Of a stretch of 64,000 nucleotides of DNA, positions 29,480 to 53,327 are shown one piece after another (positions within the stretch are counted from its first letter, which is position 1; the number at the start of each line of letters is the position of its first letter). A program made the position numbers and the translations under genes. This DNA is from Candidatus Limnocylindria bacterium (GTDB lineage Bacteria > Chloroflexota > Limnocylindria > QHBO01). Location: positions 2,788-66,787 of the forward strand of contig DASSTC010000057.1 of the NCBI GenBank assembly GCA_035708065.1, written 5' to 3'. Under the pieces are notes generated by a model. It saw nothing but the letters and a program-made list of their open reading frames with translations, was not told where the DNA came from and searched no databases.

Positions 29480-29555
29480 TGGAGCGGGAGACGGGGATCG
29501 AACCCGCGACATTCAGCTTGGAAGGCTGACGCTCTGCCAACTGAGCTACTCCCGC
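29480..29555 (-). tRNA. tRNA-Gly (anticodon UCC), CCA encoded
   Basis: Reverse complement GCGGGAG-TA-GCTC-AGTTGGCA-GAGC-G-TCAGC-CTTCCAA-GCTGA-ATGTC-GCGGG-TTCGATC-CCCGT-CTCCCGC-T-CCA folds as a 76-nt cloverleaf with TCC at positions 34-36. Confidence 0.95.
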
Positions 29556-38652: not shown

Positions 38653-39765
38653 TCAGCCGACCGCCGTGCCCAGCAGGGTGCCGATGCCGAACGTCACCGC
38701 CGCCGCCGCGAGGCCGAAGCCGACCTGGCGCAGCCCGGACTGCAGCGCGTGCTTGCCGGTCATCACCGTGATCGCGGCGCCCAGTGCGAAGAGCGCCACG
38801 GCCGACAGCACGGCCGAGAGCAGGATCGCGCCGGTACCGCTGCCGAGCAGGAACGGGATGACCGGGATGATCGCGCCGAGGGCGAAGAGCACGAACGAAG
38901 TGAAAGCGGCGACCCACGCCGATCCGCCGAGCTCGTCCGGGTCGATCCCCAGCTCCTCGCGGCTCATCGTGTCGAGCGCGATCTGCGGATCGCCGCTGAT
39001 GATCCGATGCGCCAGGGTGCGCGCCTCGTCCGGCGCCAATCCCTTCGATTCGTAGATCAGGCGCAGCTCCTCCTCTTCCTCCTCGGGGAAGGCGGCCAGC
39101 TCGTCGGCCTCCGTCGCGATCTGGTTGGCGTACAGCTCGCGTGCGCTCTGGACGCTCAGCCACTCGCCGAGGGCCATCGACAGGGACCCGGCGAGCAGCC
39201 CGGCGAGGCCGGCCACGATCACCGCCGCGCCGCCCGAGCTCGCGCCGGCGACGCCCATGACCAGGCTGAAGTTCGAGACGAGGCCGTCGTTCGCGCCGAG
39301 CACCGCGGCGCGCAGCGCGTTGCCGCCGATGCCGCGGTGGCGACCCTCGAAGCGGGCCAGCGTCGCGCCGCTCGCGCCCCCGGTGATGTTGTGCAGCAGC
39401 CGGGCGTGCGATCGCTCATCGGCAGGCAGTGACGTGCCGGCAGCCTCCGGCTGGTCGTCGTACATCGTCCGCCCCTGGCGTTCCTGGGTGGCCATGATCG
39501 GCGCGACCAGCCCGGCGCCGAAGCGGCGCGCGACGAAGGCCAGGGTGCGCGCCCGCCAGGACGGGCCGGCGACGCCGTCCGCGCCCGCAGCGGCGAGCTG
39601 CCGACGCCACAGCTCGCCGTGCCGCTCCTCGACGTCGCCCATGCGCCGGTACAGCTCGGCCAGTCGATCGTCCCCGGCGCGATCGGCCATCGCGCGGTAG
39701 ACGTGTGCGCCGTCGACCTCGCCCTGCAGGTTCTCGCGCCAGCGCGCGACATCCGAGGTGGCCAT
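38653..39765 (-). CDS. ferritin-like (erythrin) domain fused to VIT1/CCC1 transporter, MbfA-type
   Basis: N-terminal GEVDGAHVYRAMA...EERHGELW di-iron-like helices, then the GGNALRAAVLGANDGLVSNF and C-terminal TM blocks of VIT1. ATG 39765 lies 2 nt after the YHS stop. The track N-terminal extension runs out of frame through the YHS gene. Confidence 0.8.
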   Translation of the reverse strand: MATSDVARWRENLQGEVDGAHVYRAMADRAGDDRLAELYRRMGDVEERHGELWRRQLAAAGADGVAGPSWRARTLAFVARRFGAGLVAPIMATQERQGRTMYDDQPEAAGTSLPADERSHARLLHNITGGASGATLARFEGRHRGIGGNALRAAVLGANDGLVSNFSLVMGVAGASSGGAAVIVAGLAGLLAGSLSMALGEWLSVQSARELYANQIATEADELAAFPEEEEEELRLIYESKGLAPDEARTLAHRIISGDPQIALDTMSREELGIDPDELGGSAWVAAFTSFVLFALGAIIPVIPFLLGSGTGAILLSAVLSAVALFALGAAITVMTGKHALQSGLRQVGFGLAAAAVTFGIGTLLGTAVG

Positions 39766-39767
39766 GC

Positions 39768-39971
39768 TCAGTGCATGTGCGGGACGTAATCCGGCCCGAA
39801 GACCTTCTTCGGGTCGTCGGCGAACTCGAGCAGGCAGCCGCGGCTGCAGAAGGAGTAGGTCCGTCCGTCGTACTCCGCCGTGCGCCCGTCGGCGCGGGCC
39901 TCCTCGGGGTTCACCGCCATGCCGCAGACGGGATCGGTTTCGAAGTCGGTGCGCTGGTCGAGATCGGTCAT
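39768..39971 (-). CDS. YHS-domain (TRASH-type) metal-binding protein
   Basis: DPVCGMAV...YDGRTYSFCSRGCLLEF is the YHS signature. 67 aa; starts 7 nt after the copA stop. Confidence 0.85.
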   Translation of the reverse strand: MTDLDQRTDFETDPVCGMAVNPEEARADGRTAEYDGRTYSFCSRGCLLEFADDPKKVFGPDYVPHMH

Positions 39972-39978
39972 CGGTCAT

Positions 39979-42228
39979 TCACCTTTCGCGATGTGGTTGC
40001 GAGGAAGCCGGCTGGAAGGCGCGCAGTCGCAGCGAGTTGCTGACCACGCTCACGCTGGAGAGTGCCATGGCGCCGGCAGCCAGGGCTGGGCTGAGGGTCA
40101 GGCCCAGCAGCGGGTACAGCACGCCAGCCGCCACCGGGATGAGCAGGATGTTGTAGCCGAACGCCCAGCCAAGGTTCTGGCGGATTACCCGCATCGTCGC
40201 CCGCGACAGACCGATGCCATCCGGCACGCTGCCCAGGTCGTCGCCCAGGATCGTGATGTCCGACGCCTCGAGCGCGACGTCGGCGCCGGTGCCGATGGCG
40301 ATGCCCAGGTCCGCCTGGGCCAGCGCCGGCGCGTCATTGATCCCATCGCCGACCATCGCGACGGTCGCGCCCTCTCGCTGCAGGCGATCGACCTGCGCGG
40401 CCTTCTCACCGGGGAGCACCTCGGCCAGGATCCGGTTCGGCGCGATGCCGGCCCGTTCGGCGATCCTTGCCGCCGTCGCGGCGCGGTCGCCGGTGATCAT
40501 CCACACGTCGAGGCCGCGGTTTCGCAGCCTGGCGACCGCGTGGGCCGCCTCGGGACGGATGGTGTCGGCCACGCCGATGACGCCGGCCAGCTGGCCGTCG
40601 ACGGCCACGAACACCGGCGAGTCGCTGGTTCGCGCTGCGTCGACCGCGATCCCGGCGTCGCGCAGCAGCCGTTCGGTGCCGATCAGCAGCGCATGCCCGT
40701 CGACCGTGGCGCGCACGCCGCCGCCGGCGATGGCTTCGAAGTGGCTGGCGTCGGGGACCGGCTGGCCGGCAGCCAGCGCGTGACGGACGATTGCCTCGGC
40801 GACCGGGTGCTCGCTGCCGCGCTCGGCGCCTGCGGCGAGTGCCAGCAGCTCCGCCTCCGGCATGTCGCGCGGCTCGACCGCGGTGACGCTCAGCGCACCG
40901 CGGGTCAGCGTGCCGGTCTTGTCGAGCACCACCGTGGTGATGCGCTGCGCTTCCTCGAGCGCCGTCCCGTTCCGCACCAGGATGCCGTGCTCGGCGCCCT
41001 TGCCGGTGCCCACCATGATCGCCGTCGGCGTGGCGAGGCCCATGGCGCATGGGCAGGCGATGATCAGCACCGCGATCGCGCTCGACAGCGCGAAGGGCAG
41101 CCGTGGCTCCGGACCGAACAGCATCCAGGTCGCGAACGTCAGCAGCGCCACGCCCACGACGGCGGGCACGAACCAGCCGGTGACGCGGTCCGCGAGCCGC
41201 TGGATCGGCGCCTTCGAGCCCTGTGCCTGCTCGACCAGCCGGACGATCTGCTCCAGCGCGGTGTCGCTGCCGACCTTCTCGGCACGCATCACGAAGGACC
41301 CGCTCGTGTTGAGCGTCGCGCCGATCACGCGATCGCCCGCGACCTTCTCGACGGGGAGCGACTCGCCGGTGAGCATCGATTCGTCGAGGGCGGAGGCGCC
41401 ATCGGTCAGGATGCCGTCGACCGGGACCTTGTCCCCCGGACGCACGCGCAGCAGGTCGCCCTCGCGCACCTGATCGACCGGCAGGTCGAACTCGACGCCG
41501 TTGCGGATCACCCGCGCGGTGGCCGGTCGCAGCTCGAGCAGCGCCCTGATGGCGCCCGACGCACGACCCTTGGCACGCGCTTCGAGCCATCGGCCGAACA
41601 GGATCAGGCCGATGATCACCGCCGCGCTGTCGTAGTACGTCTCGAGCGTCAGGCCGGCGTCGGTGACGACCTCGGGGAGCAGCGTGACGAACAGCGAATA
41701 GCCGTACGCCGCCAGGGTGCCCATCGCCACCAGCGTGTTCATGTTGAGGTCGCCGTGGGGCAGACCCTTCGCCGCCGGCACGATGAAGCGCCGGCCGAGC
41801 ACGAACTGGACGATCGTGGCCGGCACGAGGAGCCAGACGTTGATGCGTTCCATCGGCCAGGGCGCACCGCCCGGCCAGAACATGACCGCCATCATCGCCA
41901 GGCCGATGCCGGTCGCGGCCAGCGCCTGCCAGAGCAGGTCGCGCTGCTCGCGCTCGGCGGCTTCCTGGACCTGGCCGGCTTCGTCGCCGGTCGCCGCCGC
42001 ATCGGTCCGGCGCACGTCATAGCCCGCCGCCCGGATGGTGTCGACGATCCCGGCGCGATCGATGCGCGCCGGATCGAAGTGCACCGTGGCTCGCTCGGTG
42101 GCGAGATTGACGGTCGCCTGCGCCACGCCGTCGGCCCTGTTGAGGTAACGCTCGATGCGGTTGACGCACGACGCGCAGGTCATGCCGATGACCGGCAGCG
42201 TGAGCTCGGTGTCAGCGTTGGTCGCCAT
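39979..42228 (-). CDS. copA: copper-translocating P1B-type ATPase
   Basis: GMTCASC metal-binding domain, CPC in TM6, [16 protein letters not shown] and MALSS motifs are typical of Cu(I) pumps. ATG 42228 chosen; in-frame ATG 42267 is an alternative. Confidence 0.9.
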
Positions 42229-42268
42229 ACTGCTGGGGAGTATACCGCGAGCGGGAAAATCCATCGAC

Positions 42269-42426
42269 CGCCGGCAGGTGACTCTATCGGAGAACGAAGC
42301 GGCTGAACGGTGCCTTTGCGGTGCCTTCCACCGCCGCCGGAGCCAGCCTGTGGCGATTTTGCCGGAGGAAGTCGGCGAACCGAGCTCCGCGAGCCGCTCG
42401 TTCGCTGATAGGGCCACCTGCTGGCT
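42269..42426. repeat. 158-nt imperfect-palindrome repeat element, copy 1
   Basis: 28-nt arms at 42269-42296 and 42399-42426 are inverted (22/28 WC plus 3 G:T) with a 102-nt core. The right arm is 26/28 identical to 53273-53300. Confidence 0.6.
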
Positions 42427-42473: not shown

Positions 42474-43652
42474 ATGCGCGCGCTGATCCTGACCAACGAG
42501 TTCCCGCCGACGATCTACGGCGGCGCGGGCGTGCACGTCGGTGAGCTGACACGCGCGCTGCGGCAGCTCATCGAGGTCGAGGTGCGCACCTTCGGTGACG
42601 ACCAGGTCGACGAGCCGGGCTGGCAGGTGACCGGCTTCCCGGCGGACGAGCGCTTTGGCGGAGTGTTCAAGACGCTCGAGCGCGACATCCACATGGCGGC
42701 GCCGCCGACCGAGGCCGACGTCGTCCATGCGCATACCTGGTACACCCACCTGGCGGCGGTGCTCACCAGGCTCAACGCCGGCATCCCGCTGGTCGTGACG
42801 GTTCACTCGCTCGAGCCGCTGCGCCCGTGGAAGCGCGAGCAGCTCGGCGGCGGCTACGACGTTTCGAGCTGGATCGAGAAGACCGCGCTCGAGATGGCCG
42901 ATGCGGTGATCGCCGTCAGCCGCGAGACGCGCGACGACGTGCTGCGCCTGTTCGACGTGCGGCCGGAGCGGGTCCACGTCATCCACAACGGCATCGATGC
43001 CGACTTCTTCCACCCGGTCGTCGAGACCGATGCCCTCGAGCGGCACGGCGTCGACCCGTCGCGGCCGTACGTCCTGTTCGTCGGTCGCATCACGCGGCAG
43101 AAGGGGATCGTCCACCTGGTGCGCGCCATCGCGCAGCTCGACCCCGGCATCGGTGTGGTCCTGTGCGCCGGACAGCCCGACACCCCGGAGATCGCGCGGG
43201 AGATGGAGGAGGGAGTGGCGGCCGCTCGGGCGCATCGGTCGAACGTGGTCTGGATCCCGGAAATGGTCAGCCGCGAAGCGGTCCGGCAGCTGTACAGCCA
43301 TGCCGCCGTGTTCTGCTGTCCATCGGTCTACGAGCCGTTCGGGATCATCAACCTCGAGGCGATGGCCTGCGAGACGCCGGTCGTGGCCAGTGCGGTGGGC
43401 GGCATCCCGGAGGTCGTCGTCGAGGGCGAGACCGGTGTCCTGGTGCCCCTCGAGCTGGCGGCGCCGATGCAGCCGGCCGACGCCGCGCGCTTCGAGGATG
43501 ACCTGGCCGACGCGATCAACGCGCTCATGGCCGATCCGGGGCGGCGACGGGCGATGGGCGAAGCCGGTCGCCGCCGGGCCGTCGAGTCGTTCGGCTGGGA
43601 CGCGATCGCCCGACGCACCATCGAGCTGTACGCTGCGACGGGGTCCGCATGA
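42474..43652 (+). CDS. glgM: GT4 glycosyltransferase, GlgA/GlgM-type (glycogen / alpha-maltose-1-phosphate synthase)
   Basis: [29 protein letters not shown] closely resembles the N-terminus I recall for mycobacterial GlgM. C-terminal E..G....EAMA GT-B motif ([15 protein letters not shown]). Confidence 0.75.
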
Positions 43653-48539: not shown

Positions 48540-50029
48540 TCGCTGACGACTCCTGCATCGGTCCCGAGCGGGACGTCGAGGATGATACGGGTGCCGGCGC
48601 CCGGCTGGCTCACGATCTGGAACCCGGCGCCCATGCGCGTGGCACGATCGGCCATGTTGCGCAGGCCGCGGTGGCTCGTGCCGACCTTCGCCGCGGCGTC
48701 GAAGCCGCGGCCGTCGTCGGCGATCTCCAGGTGCAGCTCGCCCTCGGCCGGCTCGATCGAGATCGTGGCGTGGCTCGCCTGCGCATGGCGAGCGACGTTG
48801 GCCAGCGTCTCGCGGACGATGCTCAGCAGCTCGCCCGACAGGTCGACCGGCAGCGGCCCGGGGTCGCTGCCGCGCACGTCGATGTCGACCGCCGAGTTGA
48901 GGCGCACCTCGTCGGCCAGGGTCTCGAGGGCGAGCAGCAGGCCGCCCTCCTCGAGCAGCACCGGTCGCAGGCCGAAGATGAAGCCGCGGATCTCGTTGAT
49001 CGTGCCGTGCAGCGAGTCGATTGCGGCGTCGACCCGCGCGGCCGCCTCCTCGGGCGCCTCGCTGACCAGCTCCGGGACGTCGTCAAGCGACAGCGTGACG
49101 CCGTAGATGCGCTGGATGATCGTGTCGTGCAGATCGCGGCTGATGCGCTCGCGCTCGGTGACGATCCCCAGGCGACGCACCCGATCATGCAGGCGTGCGT
49201 TCTCCATGGCGATCCCGCTGTGCAGCGCGAAGCGCTCGACGAGCCGCTGGTCGTCCTCGTTGAACTCCGGCGCTCCCTGCTTCTCGGTGAGGTACAGGCG
49301 GCCGATCGACCGTTGGCCGACGGTGATCGGCACCCCCAGGAACGAGCGCATCGCCGGGTGGTTCGGCGGGAAGCCGTAGCGTCGCGGGTCGGTCGTGATG
49401 TCGGCGATGCGATAGGCGCGGTTCTCGCGGATGATCAGGCCCAGCAGTCCTCGTCCCCGCGGCAGCGAACCGATGCGCTCGCGCTGCTCGTGGCTCATGC
49501 CCGAGGTCACGAAGCGCTCGATGACCCCGTCCTCGTCGACGATGCCGAGCGCGGCGTACGTGGCGTCGACCAGCTCGCGCACGCGGTCGACGATGCCCTG
49601 CAGCACGCCGTCCACGCTCTGCAGACCGGCAATGCCGCGAATCGCCACGTCGAGGGCGGCGAGGTTGCCCTCGGCGCGTCGGGCGCGGGCCTCGCCGTGG
49701 ACCGATTCGAGCGCCAGGCCGACCGCGTGGCGCAGCAGCGAGGCCGCCTCGCCGTCCGGCGGATCCAGCGCCAGGCGGCCGAGCGCCGCCGGCGCGCCGA
49801 CCGGGCGGCCGCCGGCCGCGGCATCCGCGACGAGCGTTCCGCAGCCCACCACCACCCCGGCGAGGGGCGGCGCGTCGATCAGCAGCGCCGCTCCCCGGAA
49901 GCCGAGCTGCTCGGCGAGGAGCTGAAGGGTGGACGCGATGCGATCGCGCTCCGCATCGGTCCGCCCATCCTGCCAGGCCGACACAGCGTCGATGAGGTGA
50001 GTCAGCGGCAGCGCGACCGGGTCAGGCAT
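48536..50029 (-). CDS. GAF-domain sensor histidine kinase (HisKA_3 type, DosS/DevS-like architecture)
   Basis: GAF block GFPPNHPAMRSFLGVPI, H-box ERERISRDLHDTIIQ, and HATPase blocks NVARHA and DDGRGF. Confidence 0.85.
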   Translation of the reverse strand: MPDPVALPLTHLIDAVSAWQDGRTDAERDRIASTLQLLAEQLGFRGAALLIDAPPLAGVVVGCGTLVADAAAGGRPVGAPAALGRLALDPPDGEAASLLRHAVGLALESVHGEARARRAEGNLAALDVAIRGIAGLQSVDGVLQGIVDRVRELVDATYAALGIVDEDGVIERFVTSGMSHEQRERIGSLPRGRGLLGLIIRENRAYRIADITTDPRRYGFPPNHPAMRSFLGVPITVGQRSIGRLYLTEKQGAPEFNEDDQRLVERFALHSGIAMENARLHDRVRRLGIVTERERISRDLHDTIIQRIYGVTLSLDDVPELVSEAPEEAAARVDAAIDSLHGTINEIRGFIFGLRPVLLEEGGLLLALETLADEVRLNSAVDIDVRGSDPGPLPVDLSGELLSIVRETLANVARHAQASHATISIEPAEGELHLEIADDGRGFDAAAKVGTSHRGLRNMADRATRMGAGFQIVSQPGAGTRIILDVPLGTDAGVVSE

Positions 50030-50041
50030 GGGACAAGGCTA

Positions 50042-50080
50042 CCGGGATGTCCCGGTCACTGTCCCGGCCAGACCGGGACA
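50042..50080. promoter_or_regulatory. cluster of GGGA/TCCC inverted repeats (candidate response-regulator boxes)
   Basis: CCGGGA-TG-TCCCGG (50042-50055) and TGTCCCGG-CCAGA-CCGGGACA (50060-80) lie in the 166-nt divergent region between the kinase ATG and the nirK ATG. The half-sites resemble DosR-type GGGAC/GTCCC. Confidence 0.45.
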
Positions 50081-50195
50081 TCGGGCATGCGATGGCGGGC
50101 CGCATGGCACGTGTCGCGGTCGCATCGGTCTGGTGAAATGGGAAACGTCGAAATGGAGCCGCCCAACGACGGCTCTTCCACGAAGCAGGGAACAG

Positions 50196-51551
50196 ATGAC
50201 CAGGATCTTCATCTTCATCTCGGCGTTCGTCAGCATGGCGCTGCTTACGCTCATCTACACGCAGGTCGCACAGCAACCCGCCGTCGCCCAGGCCGAGAAC
50301 GGCGGAGCGAACCAGGGCACGCTGGAGATTCACGCCTTCGACCTCGGCTTCAAGCCGAACATGCTCCACGTCCCGAACCCGGGGCGTTACACGATCAAGC
50401 TCGTCAACGACGGTGCGATGCCGCATGACTTCGCGACGGCCGATGGCACGGTGATCGTCGCCGCGCAGGCGGGCGAGACGGTCACCGCGGAGATCGACGT
50501 GCCGGCCGCCGGATTCGACTTCATCTGCTCCATCCCCGGCCACGCAGCCGCGGGCATGACCGGCAGCATCATGGTCGATGGCGGCACCGCCGGGCGGCCG
50601 AACGCGACACCGGCGCCGAGCATGGGCGATCACGGCGGTCCCGGGGCGGCGCTGCCCGCCAAGGACCCCAATGCCCCGAAGTACGAGCTCCGCGATCCCA
50701 CCGCACCGAAGCTGATGTCGGGCAAGGTCCACGACATCACCCTCGTCACCGAGGAGAAGCTGATGACCGTGGCCGACGGCTACGTGCAGAAGGTCTGGAC
50801 GTTCAACGGCACCGTGCCGGGTCCAGTGCTGCGGGTGAAGGTCGGTGACACGGTGCGGATCCACCTCCAGAACCCGAAGACCAGCCAGATGAACCACTCG
50901 GTCGACTTCCACGCCTCGATGGTGGCCTGGAACGACGAGATGACCGATATCGCGCCGGGCCAGGAGAAGCTCTACGAGTTCACGGCCGAACATGCGGGCG
51001 TGTGGATGTACCACTGCGGCACGGCGCCGACGCTGCATCACATCGCCAACGGGATGTACGGCATGATCATCGTCGAGCCGACCGCGGGCCTGCCGACGGT
51101 CGACGCCGAGTACGCCATCGTGCAGAGCGAGTGGTACCTCGGCCCGCAGGGCCAGCCGACCGATCTGACCAAGGCCTCGGCCGGTGCGCCGGATCCCGAC
51201 TTCGTGGTCTTCAACGGCGTGGCCAACCAGTACAAGGACAACCCGATCAAGGTCAAGACCGGCGAGCGCGTGCGGATGTTCATCCTGGACGCCGGACCGA
51301 GCGTGGACAGCTCGTTCCACATCGTTGGTACGATCTTCGATGACGTGATCAAGGAAGGCATCCACCTGAAGCGCGGCAACGATGGCTCGTGGGGCTCGCA
51401 GGCCGTCGACCTCTCGCCGGCGCAGGGGGCGATCGTCGAGTTCACCACGGCCGAGGATGGCCTCTACCCGATGGTGACCCATGCGTTCAACCTGGTTGGA
51501 CGCGGAGCGCTGGGCTTGGTCCAGGCCGGTGACGGCGATCCCCTCAACTGA
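50196..51551 (+). CDS. nirK: copper-containing nitrite reductase with N-terminal cupredoxin extension
   Basis: HSVDFH (T1/T2 Cu His), YHCGTAPTLHHIANGMYG (His-Cys...His...Met) and the class-II marker SSFHI. The N-terminal extra domain has cupredoxin ligands PHDF...CSIPGHAAAGM. A signal/TM segment follows ATG 50196. Confidence 0.85.
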   Translation: MTRIFIFISAFVSMALLTLIYTQVAQQPAVAQAENGGANQGTLEIHAFDLGFKPNMLHVPNPGRYTIKLVNDGAMPHDFATADGTVIVAAQAGETVTAEIDVPAAGFDFICSIPGHAAAGMTGSIMVDGGTAGRPNATPAPSMGDHGGPGAALPAKDPNAPKYELRDPTAPKLMSGKVHDITLVTEEKLMTVADGYVQKVWTFNGTVPGPVLRVKVGDTVRIHLQNPKTSQMNHSVDFHASMVAWNDEMTDIAPGQEKLYEFTAEHAGVWMYHCGTAPTLHHIANGMYGMIIVEPTAGLPTVDAEYAIVQSEWYLGPQGQPTDLTKASAGAPDPDFVVFNGVANQYKDNPIKVKTGERVRMFILDAGPSVDSSFHIVGTIFDDVIKEGIHLKRGNDGSWGSQAVDLSPAQGAIVEFTTAEDGLYPMVTHAFNLVGRGALGLVQAGDGDPLN

Positions 51552-51555
51552 TCCG

Positions 51556-52836
51556 ATGGACCTGGCCATCGGTCCGATGCCGGAGCGGCGCGATGCCGCT
51601 CCGGCATCCGCACGCCTGAGCGAACGCTCCGTCCTGCAGCTGGGCATCGGCCTGGCCGCGGGCTTCGTCGTCCTGTCGCTGGTGACCGGCGTCGTGCCGC
51701 TCGGCCCGCTGCACGGCTGGGTGGCGATCCACCTCGCGCTGGCCGGCGCCACCACCGTGGCGATCGGCACGTTCATGCCTCACTTCGGGGTGACGCTGGC
51801 CGGCACCCGGCCGGAGCCCGTCGCCGCGCGGCTCGCCGGCGTCCTGTCGCTGGCAAGCGGCATGGCGCTGGTCGCGCTCGGGCGACCGCTGCTCGGCGAT
51901 CACCTGGCTGCCGGCGGCGGCGTATTGGTGCTCATCGGCCTCGGCATCACGGCCTGGAACACGTATGCACCGATGCGCTCGGGCCTGACCCGGCGCCACC
52001 CGATCGTGCAGGTCACCTACGGCGTGGCGCTGGCCGACCTGGTCGTGGGTGCCACGCTGGCCACGTTGTTCCTGCTCGGCTTCGCGCCGGTGACCGGTGC
52101 ATGGGTCGCGCTCAAGCCGGCCCACGCCTGGCTCAACGTCTTCGGCTTCGTGTCGCTGACGATCGCCGGAACGCTGATCTACCTCTATCCGACGATGCTC
52201 GGCACCCGCATCCGGCCCCACTGGACGATGGTGATGGCCGTCATCGGCCTGCTGGTCGGGCCGCCGGTGGTGGCCATCGGATCCGCGCTCGAGTCGCAGG
52301 CCGTGGCGGTGGTCGGCGGCGCGGTCGCGCTGGCCGGTGCCATCGGTCTGCTCGGCTACGGCCTCGAGATCCGGAGCCGCCGCGGCCGATGGGCGAACGA
52401 CCTCGCCTGGCACAGCCTCACCGCACGCCACGGCCTGGCCGGCATGGCGTGGTTCGTGGTGACCGTCGCCGTGGCGCTGGTGGGCCTCGTGCGTAACGGC
52501 GCAGCCGTGCCCGGCTGGACGCTTGGATCCATGGCGCTGCCGCTCATCGGCGGCTGGGCCCTGCAGGAGCTGGTGGCGGCCTGGGGCCATCTGCTGCCGG
52601 CGGTCGGCCCGGCCGACATGGCGGCCAAGGCCCGCCAGCGTGCCGTGCTGTCGCGGCTCGCGCTGCCTCGGGTCATCGCCTGGAACCTGGGCGTGGCGCT
52701 GGCCTGGATCGGCCTCGGCCTGTGGATGCCGGTGCTGATCGGGTTGGGCGCGGTGCTGCTGGGTGGCGCAGTGGTCACCGCGCTCGTGTTGCTCGGCAGG
52801 GCGCTGAGCATCGGACAGGCACGCCGGTCATCCTGA
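51556..52836 (+). CDS. polytopic His-rich membrane protein (about 12 TM; NnrS-like suspected)
   Basis: Starts 4 nt after the nirK stop; 426 aa. Intramembrane His motifs IHLALAGATTVAIGTFMPHF, AHAWLNVFGF and AAWGHLLP. Confidence 0.7.
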   Translation: MDLAIGPMPERRDAAPASARLSERSVLQLGIGLAAGFVVLSLVTGVVPLGPLHGWVAIHLALAGATTVAIGTFMPHFGVTLAGTRPEPVAARLAGVLSLASGMALVALGRPLLGDHLAAGGGVLVLIGLGITAWNTYAPMRSGLTRRHPIVQVTYGVALADLVVGATLATLFLLGFAPVTGAWVALKPAHAWLNVFGFVSLTIAGTLIYLYPTMLGTRIRPHWTMVMAVIGLLVGPPVVAIGSALESQAVAVVGGAVALAGAIGLLGYGLEIRSRRGRWANDLAWHSLTARHGLAGMAWFVVTVAVALVGLVRNGAAVPGWTLGSMALPLIGGWALQELVAAWGHLLPAVGPADMAAKARQRAVLSRLALPRVIAWNLGVALAWIGLGLWMPVLIGLGAVLLGGAVVTALVLLGRALSIGQARRSS

Positions 52837-53142
52837 GCGTACGGACGCCGGCGTGCTCGCATGACCGGGTCGGTGGATCCTCGGCTGACCTCGGTGGCTG
52901 CCGGGAAGAGGTTGCCGATCAGCGCGACTGCTACAACCGGGCCTGATCGGCGGCAGGTGTCCCGCCGATATCAGTCGCACTGCTCGGCGAGGCGCGGATC
53001 AGTCCGAACGCCCGATTTCAACAAGCGCGACTGATCGCCGGCCGCGGCGGGGCGCTCGTCGCAGGCGCTGGATCGGTCAGGCGCAGAGCCGGCAGCCGTC
53101 GCTGCTCAGGAACGCGTGACCGAGCCAGAAGCGCCTCCGGAT

Positions 53143-53300
53143 CGTCAGCCCGTGGCTCTATCCACGATCGAGGGCGCTCTGCACACGCCTTGTTCGCTGT
53201 CGTAGCCGCTGGCTGGCGATTACGACGGCCGACGAGCCGAGCTGACGTGCCGACGCACGCCGAACCACTTGCCGTTCGCCGATAGAGCCACCTGCTGGCT
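53143..53300. repeat. 158-nt imperfect-palindrome repeat element, copy 2
   Basis: Arms at 53143-53170 and 53273-53300 (21/28 WC) with a 102-nt core, the same geometry as copy 1. The right arm is 26/28 identical to copy 1. Confidence 0.6.
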
Positions 53301-53327
53301 CCGCGGAGGGGTTCCGCCCGTCGCTGC

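Follow-up and report, generated by a model that had tools for sequence, protein, structure and literature searches.

A small palindromic element occurs twice in a 64-kb stretch of DNA (hereafter the window; G+C content 70.8%, i.e. 0.708) from Candidatus Limnocylindria, a soil Chloroflexota. Each copy has a size of about 158-176 nt and consists of two inverted arms enclosing a spacer of 102 nt, and the two copies lie 10.8 kb apart in unrelated intergenic contexts. The repeat is a genuine one of an ordinary kind, and a new RNA is not supported. With moderate confidence, it is best explained as a low-copy, lineage-restricted and non-coding palindromic repeat of the MITE/REPIN kind, which is mobilised, or was once mobilised, in trans.

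Architecture of the two copies

The arms and spacers have the following positions in the window; the last line gives the arm sequence as it would be expected in the terminal inverted repeats of a matching IS.

42269-42296: left arm of copy 1, CGCCGGCAGGTGACTCTATCGGAGAACG; 22/28 complementary to its own right arm; E = 1.9e-7 with the nhmmer arm profile
42297-42398: spacer of copy 1, 102 nt
42399-42426: right arm of copy 1, CGTTCGCTGATAGGGCCACCTGCTGGCT; 26/28 identical to 53273-53300
53143-53170: left arm of copy 2, CGTCAGCCCGTGGCTCTATCCACGATCG; 21/28 complementary to its own right arm; E = 7e-7 with the arm profile
53171-53272: spacer of copy 2, 102 nt
53273-53300: right arm of copy 2, CGTTCGCCGATAGAGCCACCTGCTGGCT; 26/28 identical to 42399-42426
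Arm sequence of the element: GCCAGCAGGTGGCTCTATCGGCGAACG

The initial annotation had described the right arms as alike, the left arm as an imperfect reverse complement of the right arm, and the distance between the arms as exactly 102 nt in both copies. All three features were confirmed. The right arms agree at 26 of 28 positions and, when the window was searched with a right arm and up to three mismatches, no match beyond the two right arms occurred; none of 100 shuffled sequences yielded any match (0/100). Watson-Crick complementarity between left and right arm amounts to 22/28 positions in copy 1 and 21/28 in copy 2. If G-U pairs are included, 83.9% of the cells are paired, in comparison to 30-49% after the partner arm had been slid by one to three columns. 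The left arms are far less conserved than the right arms (19/28 mutually identical positions, ~68% by hand count, versus 93%), and the left arm of copy 2 is the most degenerate among the four. Outward, the palindrome of copy 2 can be extended to 53134-53309, which results in arms of 37 nt with 73% complementarity and 102 nt between them, and the stem predicted for copy 1 runs from about 42264 to 42304 on the side of the left arm.

Inverted repeats of this quality (21-22/28, spacing 40-200 nt) were counted 27 times in the window in comparison to 5-26 times in shuffled sequences. A lone inverted repeat of this kind is thus nothing unusual in such a G+C-rich window, and the significance rests on the conjunction of features: the non-random part is the same arm sequence occurring four times, in two inverted pairs and with equal spacing. 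The equal spacing of 102 nt around unrelated spacers is the only feature suggestive of a geometric constraint that a protein would impose.

Spacers, folding and coding potential

It had also been proposed that the cores of both copies share sequence boxes, offset by compensating 11-nt indels. This did not hold, as the similarity of the spacers is at chance level. Their local alignment reached a score of 18 (mean of the shuffled sequences 16.9), and 351 of 1000 shuffles were as good; in the global alignment this applied to 132 of 1000. Because both alignments score at shuffle level, the shared boxes carry no evidential weight, and the 'conserved core' is an artefact of visual inspection.

As had been stated before, neither copy is coding: GC at third codon positions is not raised in any frame, and a conserved small ORF is lacking in the element. 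A peptide encoded by the 102-nt spacer (34 codons) was considered and rejected, because none of the hand-translated frames is conserved from one copy to the other and codon bias is absent.

Long hairpins are predicted for both whole copies on either strand (plus strand, z = -6.2 and -3.6; minus strand, z = -5.0 and -2.8). The spacers themselves showed no excess of structure over shuffled sequences (plus strand, z about -1.0; minus strand, about -0.3). Among the 28 arm pairs compared across the two copies, 17 are invariant, three are changed on one side and eight are broken in either copy; a double-sided compensatory change was not present among them. The three arm positions which were reported to differ and nevertheless to stay pairable are real, relying on G-U pairs on the plus strand, but each of them is a one-sided change, and they stand beside 8/28 broken pairs. 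The local hairpin GAGCCA-CCTGC-TGGCTC that had been noticed in the 3' arm is confined to the right arms, as read from the sequence; the corresponding stretches of the left arms (AGTCA..CGGCG and AGCCA..TGACG) do not pair. The element has a four-arm architecture and shows neither a coding constraint nor one of the RNA type.

Searches of Rfam agree with the initial annotation, in which the element was not recognised as a known RNA. At the gathering threshold, the single match in the whole window was a tRNA outside both loci (gene at 29483-29555, minus strand, 71.8 bits), and at E values up to 10 the two loci matched only sub-threshold, generic models of long-hairpin miRNAs (best E = 0.1-0.6). 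Neither locus contains a consensus promoter or terminator, and a terminator-like site with a U-tract was not detected. To our knowledge, the element also carries no defining motif of attC, dif, CRISPR repeats or ISL3-type ends.

Copy 1 is incomplete in close relatives

Copy 1 occupies 158 of the 212 nt which separate two divergent genes:

39979-42228, minus strand: copper-type P-type ATPase gene (copA), with HMA domain
42441 or 42474 to 43652, plus strand: gene of a GT4 glycogen-synthase-type glycosyltransferase

The right arm ends 15 nt ahead of the glycosyltransferase ORF, counted to its first ATG (42441). Two relatives are syntenic at this locus, the strain L013 with 97.4-98.0% and the species L014 with 85-90% nucleotide identity in the flanking genes, and the gap between copA and the glycosyltransferase gene comprises ~98 nt in L013 and ~127 nt in L014. 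In L013, where the site reads GGCGGCAGGTGGCGTTTCGGAG/GCTGATAGGGCACCTGCTGGC, the left end is kept in its outer part and the right arm for the most part, and ~111 nt of the interior are missing (roughly 42293-42403). L014 possesses a recognisable left arm (GCCAGCGGGTGGCTGTGTCGGACGATGAAGCGG), and its right arm is diverged or gone. Both relatives consequently show partial arms with a missing interior, and neither represents a clean empty site. Since they keep different internal portions, the simplest history is an ancestral long element with independent truncations. As the palindrome is symmetrical, the alignment is ambiguous, and as to direction we infer no more than that copy 1 was probably shortened by deletion in the relatives, instead of having grown in the lineage of the window. 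In the more distant L015, L034 and L035, other genes are located between copA and the glycosyltransferase gene, and the arms are absent. A second assembly with the long form of copy 1 was not found, and database records of the glycosyltransferase product are lacking for either start codon.

Copy 2 lies in a strain-specific segment

Copy 2 is located within a 491-nt gap between two convergent genes, and the gap is largely made up of a segment that is restricted to certain strains:

51481-52836, plus strand: gene of a 451-aa protein without Pfam match, downstream of a multicopper oxidase gene
52841-53313: strain-specific non-coding segment of ~473 nt (boundaries approximate), present in the window, L003 and L004
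53328-53831, minus strand: Flavodoxin_5 gene

Between the right arm of copy 2 and the stop codon of the gene with the flavodoxin domain lie 27 nt. L003 and L004, two metagenome contigs which stem from independent runs, are essentially identical to the window over the gap, and an assembly artefact is thereby ruled out. In L036 the flavodoxin gene is 98.2% identical at the nucleotide level, yet only 27 nt lie between the two stop codons; in two lineages with 88% identity the gap has a length of 33 nt (L016-L025) and 13 nt (L026-L029). The 473-nt segment is missing from L036 as well as from L016-L029, and copy 2 is situated at its right end. The unit which is present or absent at this site therefore comprises 473 nt and is not a clean insertion of 158 nt. 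The segment shows no coding signal and has a G+C content of 0.69, close to that of the window (0.708); apart from the arms it has no similarity elsewhere, which includes its left 293 nt.

A direct repeat of 5 bp, CTCCG, surrounds copy 2 (53135-53139 and 53299-53303), which alone is not significant. If the element and one CTCCG were removed, a perfect palindrome CCTCCG/CGGAGG (CCTCCGCGGAGG), the putative site before insertion, would be restored, and the empty site of L036 includes GGCCTCCGAGC. Judged from these sequences, CTCCG may be the target-site duplication of copy 2. No such repeat was detected around copy 1, and the ends of the element are not defined to the base. The check for target-site duplications and empty sites that had been suggested along with the repeat thus gave a divided answer: CTCCG and the empty sites of L036, L016 and L026 at copy 2 stand against the lack of any duplication at copy 1 and a gap difference of 473 nt. 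Another direct repeat of 10 nt (CCGTCGCTGC, at 53096 and 53318) was dismissed, as ~0.6 occurrences are expected by chance in the region and it does not adjoin the arms.

At both loci the element is dispensable, and it was recently gained or lost, or truncated, among near-identical strains.

Beside copy 2, the segment contains two further small imperfect palindromes (52914-52988 and 53068-53128), the sequences of which are unrelated to the main arms. In one pair the arms have 20 nt and are 85% complementary, in the other 16 nt and 88%; the overall folding of the stretch with these two palindromes does not exceed that of shuffled sequences (z = -1.5). Next to the left junction of the segment, the last ~10 codons of the gene for the 451-aa protein (52800-52840) are unlike those of all relatives: the C-terminus reads ...ALSIGQARRSS before the stop in the window and ...ALLLGRTRAAVQL before the stop in L036. 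The 3' end of this gene was apparently altered by the event which made the 473-nt segment.

Search for further copies and for an enzyme

The window and ~190 kb of related contigs were searched with an nhmmer profile built from the four arms and with a covariance model built from both copies. Beside the known copies, these returned only the remnants present in L013 and L014 and a borderline match in L034, and no further copy was found. The borderline match (L034, 5938-6075, minus strand, 19.8 bits, with the arm-like sequences GCTTCATCGG and CCGATGGAGC) lies in a GerE-family ORF of an 83% relative and was taken as a chance match. A degenerate arm pattern gave two matches in 185,579 GTDB species representatives, eight in JGI metagenome contigs and four in IMG/VR, all of them single arms in unrelated DNA and without an inverted partner. 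All were attributed to chance, including the best one (L002), which is located inside an ORF for a Gfo/Idh/MocA oxidoreductase. BLASTN of both copies and of the 473-nt segment against plasmids and phages revealed nothing meaningful. A search for further members, which the initial annotation had recommended, hence yielded none beyond the two copies in the collections and contigs covered, the source genome being represented by the 64 kb of the window.

No gene for a transposase, recombinase, invertase or HUH/Y1 (RAYT) transposase was found within the 64-kb window. A composite transposon or island bounded by both copies was also considered and rejected. The intervening genes are syntenic core genes in the relatives, and since the genes around and between the copies are conserved in the same order, these do not mark the boundaries of an island.

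A probable small mobile-type repeat and the alternatives

The repeat resembles an ordinary small selfish repeat, because its non-coding pairs of inverted ends are missing or truncated in very close relatives. Inverted ends, the non-coding nature, the unrelated contexts, and the presence/absence or truncation among 98%-identical relatives all fit a mobile or selfish repeat. Against it stand the number of only two copies found, the failure of the shared core boxes in the shuffle test, the lack of a clear target-site duplication and of a transposase or recombinase gene in the window, the 473-nt size of the polymorphism at copy 2 and the far weaker conservation of the left arms (68% versus 93%). 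The initial annotation had offered a MITE/ERIC-like mobile repeat or a small family of structured RNAs; the former, as a mobile or selfish repeat, fits these data and the latter is unsupported.

Mobility itself and the type of enzyme are what we infer here, and the course of events would be as follows. The two loci would be diverged members of one small family of selfish or neutral DNA, in which the conserved part is an inverted pair of ~28-35 nt at the ends, and the 102 nt between them are conserved in length and free in sequence. An enzyme encoded elsewhere in the genome would recognise the ends, either as inverted repeats in duplex DNA or folded into a hairpin where the DNA is single-stranded, and would then move or copy the unit into intergenic DNA. 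Candidates for this enzyme are the DDE transposase of an IS whose ends match the arms, or a tyrosine transposase of the IS200/IS605 type (RAYT-like). After insertion, the copies would decay and undergo internal deletions. That the arms are recognition sites of a dedicated, possibly domesticated, RAYT-like tyrosine transposase or site-specific recombinase which requires the 102-nt geometry appears very improbable. If it were true, this would be the first REPIN/RAYT-like or inverton-like system described in the Chloroflexota, and copy 1 might modulate the divergent promoters of copA and the glycogen-synthase gene.

It is unlikely, though worth serious consideration, that both loci are non-mobile relics, i.e. 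palindromic filler DNA which arose locally by template switching or hairpin-primed repair, or by partial duplication or gene conversion between two neighbouring intergenic regions, and which involves neither a dedicated enzyme nor a function. The occurrence of only two copies, 10.8 kb apart and with none elsewhere in the collections searched, would suit such an origin, as would the missing target-site duplication and transposase gene and the embedding of copy 2 in a larger strain-specific, non-coding segment of 473 nt with a G+C content near that of the window. Identical spacings of 102 nt around unrelated spacers are, however, hard to obtain by random repair, and a recent duplication of copy 1 to give copy 2 would have resulted in a near-identical spacer and left arm, which is not the case. 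Moreover, in a hand alignment the left arm of L014 resembles that of copy 2 including the flanking GATCG, and this likeness suggests several diverged family members. A role of the arms as protein-binding sites, as the pair of an inverton recombinase or as DNA-looping operators which control the intergenic region of the glycosyltransferase gene and copA, is quite improbable. Conserved inverted ends with equal spacing and a free interior do have the look of sites for a shared protein, copy 1 fills most of the 212-nt divergent promoter region, and copper-related genes adjoin both copies; but copy 2 is flanked by the 3' ends of two convergent genes, and a promoter that can be switched would make little sense there. 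Neither spacer has a consensus promoter, an invertase or recombinase gene is missing from the window, the orientation of copy 2 is the same in three independent assemblies (window, L003 and L004), and the arms are imperfect (21-22/28). Relatives without the element furthermore keep the same genes and a conserved copA promoter/operator.

An extremely unlikely explanation is a structured non-coding RNA or a cis-regulatory hairpin, which would serve as 5' leader of the glycosyltransferase gene or as 3' stabiliser or terminator of the flavodoxin gene. Hairpins of the REP/ERIC type located after stop codons are known stabilisers of mRNA, and copy 2 begins 27 nt past a stop codon. The predicted long hairpins are stable, and the three differing arm positions still pair via G-U on the plus strand. 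Opposed to this are the lack of an Rfam match, of double-sided compensation and of a U-tract terminator, the 8/28 pairs broken in one copy, and the folding of the spacers at the level of shuffled sequences. In addition, relatives that retain the flanking genes lack the element or carry it in truncated form, and with respect to the neighbouring genes copy 1 and copy 2 would be transcribed from different strands.

If more copies of the small mobile-type repeat exist, this would be the first description of a MITE/REPIN-type element in the uncultured and poorly studied class Limnocylindria. The element could then be used as a strain-level marker, since both loci vary between ~98%-identical strains.

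Comparison with known repeat families

Conserved inverted ends around a spacer that is fixed in length and free in sequence are typical of small non-autonomous mobile elements. The published description of REPINs (PMC3116915) corresponds to this anatomy especially well, MITEs and palindromes of the ERIC type are also similar, and the element is not assigned to any one of these families. REPINs are doublets of REP sequences which form hairpins and are moved by RAYT transposases in Pseudomonas and Enterobacteria (Bertels & Rainey 2011, PMC3116915). Their ends are conserved, and their spacer is less conserved in sequence but its length matters (PMC3116915). The element described here is similar in that the right arms are identical at 26/28 positions and both spacers have 102 nt and a similarity at chance level; the whole unit is extragenic and can form a hairpin, and excision or decay leaves partial ends ('singlets'). 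It differs in that only two copies were found instead of tens to hundreds, and its ends are not consistently short palindromes, as the local hairpin AGCCA-CCTGC-TGGCT occurs in the right arms only. Furthermore, its spacer has neither a hairpin signal nor compensatory changes, no RAYT gene is found in the window, and the host belongs to another phylum, the Chloroflexota.

Bacterial MITEs such as Correia/NEMIS of Neisseria, RUP of Streptococcus and Nezha of cyanobacteria are non-coding, intergenic elements of ~100-400 bp with terminal inverted repeats of ~20-35 bp, which differ in presence and absence between strains. The element shares with them the small size, the non-coding nature, the terminal inverted repeats (22/28 and 21/28) and the promoter-proximal and 3' positions. 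Members of a MITE family normally share their interior, however, whereas the interiors are unrelated here; in addition, a target-site duplication is not demonstrable, the copy number is apparently low, and no parent IS was found in the window.

ERIC/IRU sequences are imperfect palindromes of ~127 bp in Enterobacteria, the copies of which share a full-length consensus. The element is likewise an imperfect palindrome of similar size near genes, and shorter variants with internal deletions occur at some loci, but no sequence relationship was shown and the taxon is another one. Invertons are invertible promoters flanked by inverted repeats, e.g. fimS or the capsule promoters of Bacteroides. Short inverted repeats with a consensus common to the loci and, at copy 1, a flanked segment in the range of 100-300 bp ahead of a gene are reminiscent of them. 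In contrast to invertons, no invertase gene is present in the window, the segment contains no promoter, only one orientation was observed, and copy 2 is upstream of no gene.

Neighbouring genes

Copper-related genes are neighbours of both copies: the P-type ATPase gene (39979-42228) at copy 1, and the genes of a multicopper oxidase/cupredoxin protein and then the 451-aa protein (50001-52836) at copy 2. This association is probably coincidental, as judged from the relatives, which keep those genes without the element.

At the start of copA, an inverted repeat (ATACTGCTGGGGAGTAT, 42227-42243) overlaps the start codon (42226-42228, minus strand). Together with a TATACT hexamer resembling a -10 box on the copA strand, it is conserved in the window, L013, L014, L015 and L035. 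It resembles an operator for a copper repressor of the CsoR type at a leaderless or short-leader copA. This repeat is independent of the palindromic element. The arms were also considered as the operator of a copper regulator and rejected: the ATAC..GTAT palindrome at the copA start persists in relatives which lack the arms, and the arms are absent from the more distant copA promoters.

Upstream of copA, an open frame of 441 codons (38653-39978) gave a VIT1 match and a weak rubrerythrin-like match. At the same position, L013 and L014 possess separate genes for a VIT1 protein (370 aa) and a YHS protein (67 aa).
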